Made by a program: the position numbers
Origin: Escherichia coli O127:H6 str. E2348/69
GTDB taxonomy: Bacteria; Pseudomonadota; Gammaproteobacteria; Enterobacterales; Enterobacteriaceae
Assembly: GCF_000026545.1 (NCBI RefSeq)
Contig: NC_011601.1
Reading direction: 5' to 3' (one strand)
Length of the DNA stretch: 64,000 bases
In this document: positions 1 through 12,000 of the stretch, in pieces
Layout of the letters: the number at the start of each line of letters is the position of its first letter
Position numbering within the stretch: position 1 is the first letter of the stretch

Positions 1-3000
1 AGGAGAAGATTGTCGCAATACGCAGCGGTTTATAGGTAGCCGATTTATTAGCGGCTTCTTCTTGTAACCGTTTAAACGTCGCATAATAGGCTTTCGCGGC
101 ATCCACGCTGCTCACTGCCAACATAGCATTAAAACCTTTTGAGCCAGGGAAGGTACGGTGGGTTTTCTGGCGGAAATTATTCAGAATATATTGCGTGATT
201 TCCTGAATACGCATGGGATGAAGAAACGCCTGCTGATTTTCAGCCGCACTTAGTTTTTTCTCGTCAGTTTCTGTCTCTAAAGACTTAAACTGTGGTCGCA
301 CATCGTTGTAGTCCACCTTGAATTTGAGCACTTTTTCGTCACGAATCGCATCGGTAATTACATACGAATGCAATTCACGACCAAATACGCTGGCGGTTGT
401 TTCTGAGCCTAAGGCGTTTTCCGGGAAAATAGGGGTGCCGGTAAAACCAAACTGATAATAGCGTTTGAATTTCTTCTTCAGGTTTTTCTGCGCTTCTCCA
501 AACTGGCTGCGGTGGCATTCATCAAATATAAACACCACTTGCTGATTATATACAGGCAGGTCGCTTTCTGCTTTCATCAGGTTATTGAGTTTCTGAATAG
601 TAGTGACGATAATTTTGTTATCGTCCTTATCCAGATTTCGTTTAAGGCCTGCGGTATTTTCCGAGCCGTTGACGCTGTCTGGCGAAAAACGCTGATATTC
701 CTTCATGGTCTGGTAATCGAGGTCTTTCCTGTCGACCACAAAGAAGACTTTATCAATAAAGTCCAGCTCTGTTGCCAGACGCGCGGCTTTAAAGCTGGTG
801 AGGGTTTTACCAGAACCGGTAGTGTGCCAGATATACCCACCGCTTTCCGGTTTTGACCAGTTCTTCGCTGTAAAGGAACTCTTAATTTTCCACAGAATGC
901 GCTCGGTGGCGGCAATCTGGTACGGTCGCATCACCAGTAGCGTCTGACTACTGTCAAAAACGCTGTAGTTCACCAGAACATTCAGCAGAGTATGTTTCTG
1001 GAAAAAGGTAGCGGTAAAGTCTTTGAGGTCTTTAATCAGCGTGTTGTCTGATTTCGCCCAGTTCATGGTGAAGTCAAAACTGTTTTTATCGCGCTTTGTC
1101 GTGTTGGCAAAATAACGGGTATCGGTGCCGTTAGAAATGACAAACAGTTGCAGATACTTAAACAGGGAATTTTCGCTGTTAAAACTCTCTTTACTGTAAC
1201 GATGTATCTGGTTGAAAGCCTCACGAATCGCCACCCCGCGTTTTTTTAGTTCGATTTGCACCAGCGGTAAACCATTAACCAGGATCGTGACGTCATAACG
1301 GTTAGCATGAGAACCCGTCTGTTCAAACTGCTGGATAATCTGCACCTTATTGCGCATGAGATTCTTTTTATCTATCAAATAGATGTTCTCAAGTCGCCCG
1401 TCGTCAAAAATAAAGTCGCAGATATAGTCGATATGGATTTTACGGGTTTTATCCAGAATACCATCGCTGGGGTTGTCCAGATACTGCTCCGTGAAGCGCC
1501 GCCACTCGCTGTCATTAAACATCACACCATTGAGGCTCTGAAGCTGTTCCCGAACATTAGACAGCATTGCCGACTGTGATTTTACGGAAATAAATTCATA
1601 ACCCTGATTCCGCAGGTCCTGAATCAGTTCACGTTCCAGGTCCGATTCGCTCTGGTAGCTGTCGCTTGTTTGCTCAGCTTTGATGTACTTATCAAGGACG
1701 ATAAAGTTATTGGATTCAGCAATGGTGTGTGTTTGATGAGTCATAGCGCATCCTTTGTGCCGCCTGGCAAGAGCCGGAAGGGCGTTAAGAGTGACTTCCG
1801 GCGCGTAAAAAATAGTCTATATACTGACCGGGTGTTAAGGTGGCCCGATCGGTAGCAATGGTCAATTAATTACTGACAGTTTCAGGTTTCGGGAAACTGA
1901 ACAGTAAATCACGGTAGTATTCGTATTGTTTCTGGCGCAACTCGATTTCACGCGGGAGACCTTCAGTGATGGAGTTGGTCAGGGTGTCGAATTTATCGAG
2001 TATTTCGACAATGCGAGCTTGTTCTTCTGAAGGTGGTACAGGTATTGGGAATTTTAAAAACATTGGTCGACGAAGTGAGGTAACCGATGAACTTACTGAT
2101 GCTTTTTGAATATAGGTAAAAAAATATGCTGTTATATAGTGATATACAAATCGCGGATTCATAAATGCATTTGGGACAATACGATATGCTCTCTGATGCA
2201 AAGCATATTTACCTTTAGCGTAATGAAATACCTTCCCCACCCCGGCACCATCTCCAGCTGTAATGATTGCTGTTTCATCAAAATCAAATACATTTAACTT
2301 TAATGGCTCACGTCCACGTGCATAAAAAATATATTTGCCATGTTCTATAGCATCTTGCGTATCATGGTTACCTGTTCCTATAACAGCCACTTCCCCCAAA
2401 GTCTTCCACTCAACCTCACCCTCTTTAAAACTCAACAACTGGTCACGATAGTAGTTGTACTGTTTTTTACGCATGTTAAGCTCAGCGGTAAGCTCAGCGG
2501 TAAGCTCAGCGGTAAGTGCAGTAAATTTATCCAGAATCCGAACGATTTCAGACTGGATGGCAAGGGATTTCTCCGGATTATCCGGGCAGGGGATGGGGAT
2601 TAAGAGCTTTTTTAGGTCGCCCATTGGTAGACTAATTACCGGGTTGCCGACAATTTTTTTGCTATAGTCTTTAACTATTTTACTTGATTGTAATAAATAC
2701 GATAAAAATCTAGGCGCAATTTTTTCCTTAATTGGTTTGATAGTGTAAACGCCTTCTTTGATATTCCAATTTATAGGATTTTCTTCAATTACCGCGATGC
2801 GTCCAACCGTGCCGGTTCCGGAGAACAATATATCTCCAGCTTCTAAATTAGAACGACCATTTATTATTTTTAATGCTCTATCATTTACTCTGTCTGTTTT
2901 ATCAAGAAAGACAACTTTGCCATTCTGGATCTCACGAACAGTTACGTAATATCCTTGGGCATCTAATGTATTTAAGCTAAAATTTTGGCGTGGGTTCAAT

Positions 3001-9000: not shown

Positions 9001-12000
9001 TATGTATGGGGATGTTAATGCTTTTTCACTGCTTTTCCCGATGGAGGCTGTTTTTGAATCTTTTGTGACGACATGGATGCGTTATCGTTATTATGATAAA
9101 TGGCGAGTGGACGCACAGGTAAGTTCAAAAAATCTGATTAGTTATAACGGTAAAGCTTTATTTAAGCTGCGGCCTGATATTTGTTTACGGCCTCGTAAAA
9201 GTACTACTGGTTCAGTTATTACCTGTGATGTTAAATGGAAGATAGTAAATGGCAGAAAGGACAGTCTTGAACAATCTCAAGCCGATCTCTACCAAATGCT
9301 TGCCTATGGATTGAATTACCAGGAGGGGGAAGGTGATATGATTTTGATATACCCCTATCATAACGGATTTAATCAGCCATCTCCTCATCCTTATGAATTT
9401 AGCCATCAGAAGGAAAATAGGTTACGTTTATGGGTTGTACCTTTCTTTATTGGCGAGAGTTTACAAACATCAGAGTTGCGTTTTCCTGGTGGGGCTGAAT
9501 TTATTTAGTATTTGTAGGCTATCTCTTTATACAATTTATTTGTCTATTTGTATGCACAAAATAGCCTACCTCACCCCCTAAAAACCTCTTTCCGATGCCA
9601 CTCTACAAACACCTCATAAGGGTAATTTTTACGTACCTGCGGCAAAGCAATAGTTTTCCCGTCAAAATCCCAGAATAGTTTCTCAACGATCCCTCCGCCG
9701 TTTACCGCATCTGATACCAGTACCCGCATATTTTCGTCCAGGCCAATCGATCCTTTATCAAAGGCTTTATGGTGAATTGCGCAAAGCGCCAGGCCATTAG
9801 GAATTTCACAAGGACCGCCGTGCTGTTTCCATTTTATATGCGCCGCTTCAAGCGCGACGGTGGTGTCGTCGTGGCGCATATTAAAGCCACATATCGCGCA
9901 CTGGTAGTTATAAGCGCGTAATACATTTTTGCGAAATAACGGGTCGCGCTGTTTACGGATTTGCTGGAGGTCAAAACCCAATTCGTCAGCAATTTCCTCC
10001 TGAATACTCTCGGTAAAATGCGCTTCGAGTATCTGTTGCGCCAGGGTATTGATGAGTTTTTTATTGCCGGTTACCAGGGCGTAGTGCTGTTCATCGAAAC
10101 CGCCTGCAACGCGGTGTTCGGTCAGTTCCTTCACTGGCGGTTGTCGGCTGCTCCCTGCTGTTGAGCAAAGCCCGGCATTGTGTAATTGCCAGAATCCGTC
10201 GCCTTGTAATCGCCAGAACGGCATATCAGGTCGGTACTGTGAACGCTGTGGCCCAAAACGTTCCAGTAAACTGTGCAGAGGTTCGTAGATTTCCGAGCCA
10301 TAATCGAAAAGGCGCGGATGTCCATTCAGGTATCCCGCTAATACGTATAGCAATAACAATGGCTTATGCGGCGCGCGCTGTTCACCCTTGTGCCAGATTT
10401 TTATATTGGCAATTGCCTGCTGTAGCGATTTACTGGAAGCCATTGATATCCCTGGCAGTGAAATAATTGCGATCATGCTCGCAAATTTTCTTCTGTTCAA
10501 GCCTGCAAGTGAAGATATATTACTTTGATCTCATTTGTTTTTTTGCTGCCTGCTCTGAGAACGTATAAGGATATTCCCCATGAATAAACTTCCCGACCAT
10601 CTTCCGCGGCGGTATATCATCGAAGCTATCCATTTATGGGATGCGGGAGAAACTCATCAGTTCCAGCCTGCACGGTTGTATTAGATTGAATATCATGGCC
10701 GACGTTACCCCTCGAAGGCGATTGCTGGCATCGCAGCGACATTGATGACGGGGACGCAATTTACCCCTGCGGATTTCACCGGCGGAATAAAATCTAAATG
10801 CGTCAAACTACTCATAGAGCAGGGATTTCATATTCATCAGGATAAAGCCGCTGCGGCTCCCATAGCCGACGTTCTGTTCCCGGATGAGTTGCCGTCGCAG
10901 GAGACCTACGTTGAAGGTGCGGCGATAAAGGTGACAGTAAACCGCTATGAACGCGATAAAAAGGTCCGAGATAAAGCGGTCGAATATCATGGATGCCAGT
11001 GCAACGTATGCGGCGTTGATCTGGTGAAGATCTATGGTGATATTGCTGAAGGCTTTATCCATATGCATCACCTGGTGCCGCTTTCAGCCATTAAAGAGGA
11101 TTACCAGCTGGATCCAGTTAATGATTTGCTGCCTGTGTGTCCTAATTGCCATGCGATGTTGCACCGACGCAAACCACCGTTTACGCCGGAGGAGTTAAAA
11201 GCGTTGATGGATGCGAATAAATCAAATTAATGAACGCTCACCTTTCGCGCCAAAACTGCAAAATTGCTTCTACAAACCTGTCAGAAATAATCCCCCGACG
11301 GGCTGCCGCGCTGAAATGACTGCTTCGCAGTGCCGTCGTCCAGTTCTCCGGTGACCGGTACGCTGAACCGTAATATCCCGTGCTTAAATCGTCCGGGTCT
11401 TCATCAGGCGCGTTCGTCAGTCCTCTTTCACCTTGTTGCTGGAAGTCGACGAAAATAATATTGGCTAAAACATTATTTTGATAATTGCCATAAATAGCTT
11501 CATACGCATGAGGGAAATTTTCTTTCCAGTACCAGGTGGTATCGCCGCAAAACCACGGTGCGTCAGTAATATTATTAAGCTGAGAATGGTATTGTTTTAG
11601 ATCCCTACGAAAGGCTTCAACCATATGATTAAAGTGTTGAGGATGTGACGCGTAGTCACTGGTCATTAAGTCAAATTCGCCTTGCATCCAGCATACGCCG
11701 AGGAATTTGTTCTGCGGATTTTTTGCCAGTGCGGCTCGCGTTCTGCTCACTAAATCCTGGTATAGCGGAGTATCCGTTCCCCAACGACAAGCATCATGGC
11801 TGGCTCCGTGCCGTTCTGAATATGTCCCTTCGCTGCCCGCGGTAAAAGCCGATCCGCCACGGCAACACGGAACGATGAGAACCCCTGCATTATCAGGAAT
11901 AAAGGGCAGTAATTTCCGTGCTATATGCAGTGCCTGGCCAACGGTGCCGTACTGTGTTTGATGATTCGTTGCCAGAGGATGGTGATAACCCTGCATATCC

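Follow-up and report, generated by a model that had tools for sequence, protein, structure and literature searches.

Is the dense run of restriction genes that abuts nanS in Escherichia coli O127:H6 str. E2348/69 a horizontally acquired island and, if so, was it acquired in one piece? We addressed this question for the first 11,230 nucleotides of a 64,000-nucleotide stretch of contig NC_011601.1 (hereafter the window), which carry a type IC hsd system, a DUF4942 gene, an McrB/McrC pair and two HNH genes. Our preferred reading, to which we give a probability of roughly 0.85, is that this segment is the E2348/69 version of the leuX-nanS defence hotspot #37, a composite of independent restriction modules without an integrase of its own. 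A first-pass annotation of the same DNA had described a horizontally acquired defence island holding four restriction determinants and an unknown gene within 11 kb; each gene it listed is present where it had been placed (Table 1). The idea of horizontal acquisition is borne out by the leuX-nanS location, the patchy distribution of the segment (161 of 5,426 genomes), 788 matches to the hsd genes on plasmids and a published hotspot. What does not stand is the single island, because the nearby integrase lies in a separate element, the HNH pair appears to be resident at the locus and the DUF4942 gene appears to be island backbone.

The leuX-nanS interval and its recurrent junction

Window 1-11230 is 100% identical to E2348/69. 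Coordinates to the left of the window are given on a longer record of the E2348/69 neighbourhood (L001), in which position equals window position plus 19,000 and which overlaps the window over 30,230 bases with 0 mismatches. In the annotated neighbourhoods the segment lies in the leuX-nanS interval, with lptG/yjgR/ahr-leuX on its left and nan/fim/uxuR on its right. The left boundary had been placed beyond the window, and indeed hsdR runs off the left edge and tRNA-leuX (L001 2258-2342) is found a further 16.7 kb away. On the right, nanS provides a core anchor whose product is identical to K-12 NanS at 321 of 327 aligned positions (98%, stop included), and collinearity with K-12 begins at window 11235 and continues onwards at 97.4%. 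K-12 carries yjhR and the right end of KpLE2 at this position, as the first-pass annotation had stated in placing the yjhR side of a leuX-linked prophage-like element here.

Distribution divides the segment in two. Among 5,426 complete E. coli genomes, the entire segment finds some match in 5,081 and is matched at a coverage of at least 80% in the 161 genomes already mentioned. The stretch that holds DUF4942 and mcrBC (4660-9567) finds a match of any kind in 548 genomes and one of at least 80% coverage in 228. The stretch that holds the two HNH genes (9568-11230), for which hit rows were sampled at even steps down the ranked list, has matches in 4,889 genomes (90%), next to nanS, with at least 80% coverage in 325. 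Window 1-9567 is accessory, occurring in 3-4% of the genomes. The change falls at a sharp and recurrent junction: in genomes that lack mcrBC, matches begin at 9567-9569, 3 nt beyond the stop codon of the sulfur-binding domain (SBD)-HNH gene, and homology with Klebsiella begins at the same point.

Composition follows distribution in part. The segment has a GC content of 43.5% against 48.5% for the rest of the window, and it is more AT-rich than fimA-H (48.9%) and uxu (55.2%), as the first-pass annotation had remarked of the fim/uxu core. That contrast does not extend to all of the neighbouring core, since AT-richness is as high in nanM (44%), nanC (43%), the nanC-fimB spacer (36%) and fimB-fimE (40%), while the HNH pair (48-49%) cannot be told apart from nanS (48%). 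Only hsdS, mcrB and mcrC are clearly atypical, with a GC content at third codon positions (GC3) of 0.33-0.37 versus 0.40-0.45 in nan and fimB. Patchy distribution and atypical composition are thus found together in 1-9567 and not in 9568-11230. Conversely, the conserved synteny and core-like composition that had been named as evidence against horizontal acquisition are seen in part in 9568-11230 and not in 1-9567.

Table 1. Features of the segment and its right-hand anchor (window coordinates).
Feature	Position	Strand	Assignment or basis
hsdR, 5' part, codons 1-581 of 1038	1-1744	-	type IC restriction/translocase subunit; TIGR00348, 764 bits
hsdS, 408 aa	1866-3092	-	type IC specificity subunit; PADLOC Specificity_I, 6e-125
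12-bp tandem repeat (three copies and a degenerate fourth) inside hsdS	2477-2521	-	repeat search
hsdM, 518 aa	3089-4645	-	type IC methyltransferase subunit; TIGR00497, 644 bits
DUF4942 gene, 277 aa	4952-5785	+	putative terminal backbone gene of CP4/KpLE2-type islands
McrB-family gene, 684 aa	6147-8201	+	AAA+ GTPase family
McrB N-terminal all-alpha domain, residues 1-205	6147-6761	+	candidate DNA-modification reader; predicted fold
McrB AAA+ GTPase motor	6789-8201	+	Pfam AAA_5; NF008457 at residues 440-610
McrC-family nuclease subunit, 436 aa	8198-9508	+	Pfam McrBC PF10117, 3.8e-100
Recurrent junction, variable cargo (left) and conserved flank (right)	9567-9568	.	match ends
SBD-HNH phosphorothioate-dependent restriction endonuclease, 290 aa, EcoWI-like	9571-10443	-	NCBIfam NF045808, 437 bits (cut-off 180)
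Second HNH gene, ScoMcrA_N + HNH type, 216 aa if intact	10580-11230	+	Pfam HNH; TAG at 10682-10684
nanS, intact 326-codon open reading frame	11238-12218	-	right-hand core anchor

Backbone, exchangeable cargo and the neighbouring integrase

The gene that had been left as an unknown of the defence island is indeed there, although as a DUF4942 gene it is better placed with island backbone than with defence. Its protein has no match in PADLOC, NCBIfam or PDB sequences, and PHROGs ties the DUF4942 domain to part of a phage DNA methyltransferase family. In Klebsiella pneumoniae the gene comes immediately after an antirestriction-RadC-CbeA-CbtA backbone; Yersinia has this backbone too (RadC-DUF987-CbeA-CbtA), with two more genes between CbtA and DUF4942; and in E. 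coli E2865 the order antirestriction-JAB-DUF987-YeeU-CbtA-DUF5983-DUF957-DUF4942 continues with SBD-HNH in truncated form, then the HNH gene and nanS. From this shared gene order we infer that DUF4942 closes the backbone of CP4/KpLE2-type integrative islands as its last gene, with no defence assignment in the libraries searched. What follows it varies: mcrBC occupies the slot between DUF4942 and SBD-HNH in E2348/69, 1303, A27 and C289, AbiE does so in 22-245, and ParDE and a helix-turn-helix (HTH) gene in Klebsiella. The E2348/69 gene is 92% identical to its counterpart in strain 1303 (L003 16936-17769), while the neighbouring proteins other than HsdS are 98-99.6% identical. This divergence would fit a recombination joint within or close to the gene.

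Extending the analysis leftwards, as had been proposed, recovered leuX, an integrase and direct repeats, yet these bound a separate 15-kb element that excludes the defence genes. A second copy of the 3'-terminal 31 nt of leuX is located at L001 17373-17403, 224 bp short of the hsdR stop codon. The two copies enclose 15,030 bp (L001 2343-17372; 1.6-16.7 kb left of the window), in which a tyrosine integrase gene adjoins the distal repeat and is accompanied by genes for a DNA invertase, a DEAD/DEAH helicase, an HNH endonuclease, a homologue of a major head protein (phrog_267) and an endonuclease VII-like protein. On this gene content the element looks like a small capsid-encoding phage satellite. 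Its integrase is 389 bp from hsdR. When E2348/69 is aligned with strain 1303, the two match as far as the end of leuX and again from the 31-nt repeat onwards, leaving a clean 15,030-bp insertion; both 1303 and 22-245 have hsdR immediately after leuX and lack an integrase over the whole distance to nanS. Because the 31-nt repeat stands between the integrase and hsdR, and because 1303 and 22-245 are integrase-free, the integrase does not belong to the defence genes. The sole repeat pair encloses the 15-kb element, and no tRNA 3'-end direct repeats enclosing both the defence genes and an integrase were found. The element reaches a coverage of at least 80% in just 4 of the 5,426 genomes; hundreds of other genomes carry its first 464 bp. 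Searches in or beside the E. coli block for an attR or another remnant of the leuX 3' end returned chance-level matches only (11- and 12-mers; local alignment at ~4640-4960, 5780-6150 and 9400-9700). The defence block contains no mobility genes, and IS66 or IS3 insertion sequence (IS) copies lie at truncation points in several strains.

The two HNH genes on the other side of the junction are best read as an old resident flank of nanS that is decaying in most lineages. In Klebsiella, the leuX 3' end recurs as a 15-21-nt copy (attR) that separates DUF4942-ParDE-HTH from the SBD-HNH and ScoMcrA_N-HNH genes, so that there the pair lies outside the island. Decay within 9568-11230 takes recurrent forms: either SBD-HNH is intact and most of the HNH gene deleted, or the HNH gene is intact and SBD-HNH truncated, or nanS is lost (as in O157:H7), or a 247-bp internal fragment is all that is left, as in K-12-type genomes. 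In K-12 itself, the debris between yjhR and nanS (NC_000913.3 4536102-4536514; L002 42103-42515) comprises 118 nt resembling the region upstream of DUF4942 and 247 nt resembling the interior of SBD-HNH (90.7%), the latter being unannotated DNA at NC_000913.3 4536268-4536514. From this debris it would follow that K-12 descends from an arrangement like DUF4942-...-SBD-HNH-HNH-nanS. The K-12 gene yjhZ was considered as the SBD-HNH remnant and rejected, as alignment puts the remnant in the unannotated yjhR-nanS DNA. The remnant of the pair probably explains the 'restriction endonuclease' fragment called in some K-12-type genome annotation. The pair is of some interest in its own right as a near-universal yet mostly decayed neighbour of nanS.

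Taken together, these comparisons suggest a layered history. The two HNH genes would be the old nanS flank, and DUF4942 what is left of the right end of a leuX island of CP4/KpLE2 type; hsdRSM to the left of DUF4942 and mcrBC to its right would occupy exchangeable cargo slots; and the satellite-like 15-kb element, outside the window, would be a later, lineage-specific insertion at leuX. Cargo would then turn over through homologous recombination at shared, conserved anchors and through deletions associated with IS elements, the neighbouring integrase having no part in it. With DUF4942 and the HNH pair as fixed anchors around exchangeable slots, the locus may offer a handle on how an integrase-less hotspot might turn over.

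We weighed three other explanations against the composite hotspot. One holds that the whole leuX-nanS interval (~28 kb) is a single integrase-mobilised island or prophage-like element with the defence genes as its cargo, as a classic tRNA integration site occupied by KpLE2 in K-12, a site-specific integrase so close to hsdR and the atypical composition of hsdS and mcrBC would lead one to expect. Against it, the 31-nt leuX repeat leaves the defence genes outside the mobile unit, strains 1303 and 22-245 carry the block without the integrase and differ by a clean indel, the element and the block have unequal prevalence (4 versus 161 genomes at a coverage of at least 80%), and no second repeat was found near nanS; this explanation is largely refuted and we consider it highly improbable. 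The opposite view, in which the block is ancestral AT-rich Escherichia core lost from most lineages, draws on the equally AT-rich core genes next to it, on the traces of the right-hand 1.66 kb in 90% of genomes and on the lack of mobility genes within the block, but it is hard to square with the rarity of 1-9567 (3-4%), with the plasmid matches to hsd, with strain-to-strain differences in the slot after DUF4942, with the position of DUF4942 elsewhere at the end of a mobile island backbone or with the low GC3 of mcrB, mcrC and hsdS relative to nan and fimB. We therefore give it very little credence.

A narrower alternative concerns hsd alone, which may have been taken up straight from an R124-like plasmid through recombination immediately downstream of leuX, its adjacency to DUF4942 being coincidental. 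The hsd part is matched at 788 places on E. coli plasmids (~95-97% identity in the sampled ones), and these matches stop at window ~4648-4657, just beyond hsdM, while at the other end the conserved leuX flank stops ~65 bp before the hsdR stop codon; the lower identity of DUF4942 relative to its neighbours also suggests a separate history. Such a capture nonetheless seems unlikely to us, as no plasmid or IS sequence lies beside hsd in E2348/69, 1303 or 22-245, and type IC systems are reported in a review as recurrent occupants of this hotspot across Enterobacteriaceae (PMC12707154). Were it correct, it would touch only the origin of hsd and leave the gene functions unaffected.

Several considerations weigh against the composite hotspot as we have set it out. 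The strain collection behind the prevalence figures is skewed to clinical and farm isolates. The role of homologous recombination is drawn from shared anchors and sharp junctions, and the history of a decayed CP4-type island from gene-order comparison, with no attR or scar in the E. coli block. The 'ancestral' status of the HNH pair is argued from E. coli and a few Klebsiella loci. Finally, the actions ascribed to the modules follow from family membership, and any of the modules could be silent.

Published work on the same interval agrees with the composite hotspot. In the study that defined hotspot #37 (Hochhauser et al. 2023), the site is occupied in 97% of genomes, nearly always with defence systems, and in 68% of cases has no detectable mobile element, its mode of mobilisation being one that could not be readily determined (PMC10121019). 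A 2025 EcoSal Plus review anchors the hotspot at leuX and finds type IC systems in 4% of HS37 loci, whereas the classical Immigration Control Region (ICR) never holds one (PMC12707154), and the 3% prevalence of the present block agrees with that 4%. The likeness is close: the interval is identical, and defence systems likewise replace one another there, mostly without a detectable mobile element. The passages of these papers that were consulted do not describe the gene combination of E2348/69, the DUF4942 anchor, the constant SBD-HNH/HNH pair or the McrB reader. The island is thus of a kind already known: it adds a further pattern of occupancy to the best-documented defence hotspot of E. coli, in a reference strain that is fully annotated; each gene is correctly named by standard annotation, and only some details of the parts are new.

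Predicted actions of the restriction modules

The 'type IC' label given to the hsd genes by the first-pass annotation holds, on the strength of full-length matches to EcoR124I/II and of three TAEL repeats in HsdS. The complete hsdR (L001 17628-20744), of which the window has the first 1744 nt, encodes 1038 aa that match the crystallised EcoR124I HsdR (PDB 2w00) over residues 1-1038 (2266 bits), and HsdM aligns with the M protein of EcoR124II (7bst_D) from end to end, residues 1-518 (1149 bits). For HsdS, likeness to its EcoR124II counterpart is confined to the conserved regions. The 12-bp repeat within hsdS encodes TAEL-TAEL-TAEL, with copies at residues 194, 198 and 202 (span 194-205). In EcoR124I and EcoR124II, the number of TAEL copies (2 or 3) fixes the length of the spacer in the recognition site. 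E2348/69 therefore shares with these enzymes of plasmid R124 essentially identical HsdR and HsdM proteins, the gene order hsdM-hsdS-hsdR on one strand and TAEL in HsdS, in three copies as in EcoR124II. It differs in being chromosomal and in its HsdS recognition domains, and because of the latter its recognition sequence should differ from those of EcoR124I/II. A similar difference is seen among relatives: HsdS of E2348/69 and of strain 1303 are 46.6% identical, as against 98% for HsdR and HsdM, which indicates the usual swap of HsdS target-recognition domains between the two strains. The system would methylate a bipartite target, defined by the pair of recognition domains in HsdS and with its spacer length fixed by the three TAEL copies, and would cut unmethylated DNA after HsdR-driven translocation. 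A literature search found no E2348/69 methylome paper.

The McrB/McrC pair has the architecture expected of a GTP-driven type IV enzyme that would act against modified DNA. The McrB motor matches McrB of Thermococcus gammatolerans (6ut3, 1e-52) and EcoKMcrB (6hz4, 6e-30); in the translation, ~210 residues separate Walker A (~229-236) from Walker B (~447). The mcrC start overlaps the mcrB stop by 4 nt, and McrC aligns with its T. gammatolerans counterpart (3.8e-18) at the PD...D-x-K residues. In common with McrBC of K-12 and of T. gammatolerans, the pair combines an AAA+ GTPase with a PD-(D/E)xK McrC in overlapping genes, and it is nearer to the T. gammatolerans system than to that of EcoK. Its N-terminal reader is unlike both the EcoK DUF3578-type domain and the YTH-like domain: McrB residues 1-215 have no Pfam match, and no 5-methylcytosine (5mC)-binding domain of the EcoKMcrB type (DUF3578/MrcB_N) was found there. 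The closest McrB homologue outside E. coli sits on a 3.6-kb contig, whose context is uninformative.

What this N-terminal domain might read is the only lead of moderate interest in the segment, and a testable one. An exhaustive search returned 25,694 representative clusters related to the whole McrB protein, the N-terminal region being aligned as well in 48 of the best 150, and a word-indexed search with the domain alone returned mostly fragments; the domain family spans at least 48 representative clusters and has no Pfam model. A structure predicted from a 25-sequence alignment is confident (predicted local distance difference test, pLDDT, 89) and all-alpha. Its best structural matches, of weak resemblance, are helix-hairpin-helix (HhH)-glycosylase folds, and Foldseek against AFDB finds the same fold at the N terminus of many McrB-family proteins and also in a DUF262 protein. 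Neither a profile search against PDB sequences nor a Pfam scan of every aligned protein linked the domain to glycosylases by sequence. According to a 2025 preprint on END nucleases, their inactivated EndoIII/Ogg-like sensor of hypermodified DNA (iEndoIII) is found in fusion with McrB-like GTPases as well (bioRxiv 10.1101/2025.03.31.646159), and the N-terminal domain of the E2348/69 McrB may be such a sensor. Tentatively, and at somewhat short of even odds, the 684-aa McrB may read DNA through an inactivated HhH (EndoIII/Ogg-like) glycosylase fold, as an 'END-type' type IV enzyme that senses hypermodified bases and not 5mC. If that were true, the targets of this McrBC would be, for example, 7-deazaguanines or glycosylated hydroxymethyl-pyrimidines.

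Next to nanS, the SBD-HNH protein is placed among the EcoWI-like enzymes by its family profile score. Its N-terminal half matches the sulfur-binding domain of ScoMcrA (5zmo) and its C-terminal half is HNH (HNH_2), an organisation shared with EcoWI, with other SBD-HNH phosphorothioate-dependent endonucleases and with ScoMcrA; the Klebsiella homologue carries PF26340 and PF13391. Enzymes of the EcoWI type have been characterised biochemically and in vivo (PMC7461809), and the E2348/69 protein would be expected to cut phosphorothioate-modified DNA. Codon 35 of the second HNH gene is an in-frame TAG in E2348/69 versus GAG in strain 1303, where the gene is an intact 216-aa open reading frame with a start equivalent to window 10580. 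The product annotated in E2348/69 has 181 aa and begins at a non-standard start codon just past the TAG. The E2348/69 gene is probably a pseudogene or the source of an N-terminally truncated product, its ScoMcrA_N-HNH nuclease having been knocked out or truncated by the amber codon. In E2348/69 the SBD-HNH gene is paired divergently with the ScoMcrA_N-HNH gene, a pairing kept in Klebsiella and not mentioned in the portion of the EcoWI report available (PMC7461809). The Klebsiella homologue of the second gene carries PF26345 (ScoMcrA_N) and HNH.

The divergent SBD-HNH (PF26340 and HNH_2) and ScoMcrA_N-HNH (PF26345 and HNH) pair is common to E. coli and Klebsiella pneumoniae (L006 12663-14347; L007 11694-13381). 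Between them, its two proteins hold three of the four ScoMcrA domains (head, SBD and HNH), divided between two genes.

If all modules are expressed as their families suggest, the segment would jointly direct attack on unmodified DNA, through the type IC system, and on DNA with foreign modifications, through an McrBC whose all-alpha, weakly HhH-glycosylase-like reader is not the 5mC domain of EcoKMcrB and through the SBD-HNH enzyme.

The Immigration Control Region and smaller features of the window

A close parallel elsewhere in E. coli is the ICR of K-12 (mcrBC-symE-hsdSMR-mrr; hotspot #36), likewise an integrase-less cluster of type I and type IV systems that lies between conserved anchors and varies by replacement. 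Its locus is different, yjiN-yjiA, which in this window falls at ~40-45 kb and is decayed, and its families (IA/IB/ID, EcoKMcrB and Mrr) contrast with the type IC system, long McrB homologue and SBD-HNH enzyme of the leuX block. The yjiN-yjiA region of E2348/69 (40061-44511) contains no hsdRMS, mcrBC or mrr, and the type I and McrBC-like functions of this strain are accordingly predicted at leuX instead of at the ICR. Their location at leuX may matter for transforming or transducing E2348/69, a widely used enteropathogenic E. coli (EPEC) strain.

Within the same region are a gene of the Rpn family (40061-40981), symE (41670-42008) and a 210-nt hsdR fragment (42223-42432). They are followed at 42661-44511, on the minus strand, by an intact 616-aa NERD+UvrD-helicase gene annotated as '3'-5' exonuclease', which matches the PADLOC candidate C3a187 (2.8e-140) and, more weakly, GajB-, Nhi- and AbiO-like proteins.

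An Rfam scan of window 1-16000 gave no matches, and promoter and terminator scans returned chance-level results only. Although the nanS open reading frame is actually intact, RefSeq calls it an incomplete pseudogene in E2348/69 and several other strains, annotating 11652-12218 only, and it adds a 29-codon 'hypothetical protein' at 11230-11319. Further to the right, the ~730-bp gap between fimH and uxuA (24341-25071) contains only a 108-nt pseudogene fragment. In strain A27, gntP is found at this place (L004 33237-34580), and in E2348/69 the gene appears to have been deleted.

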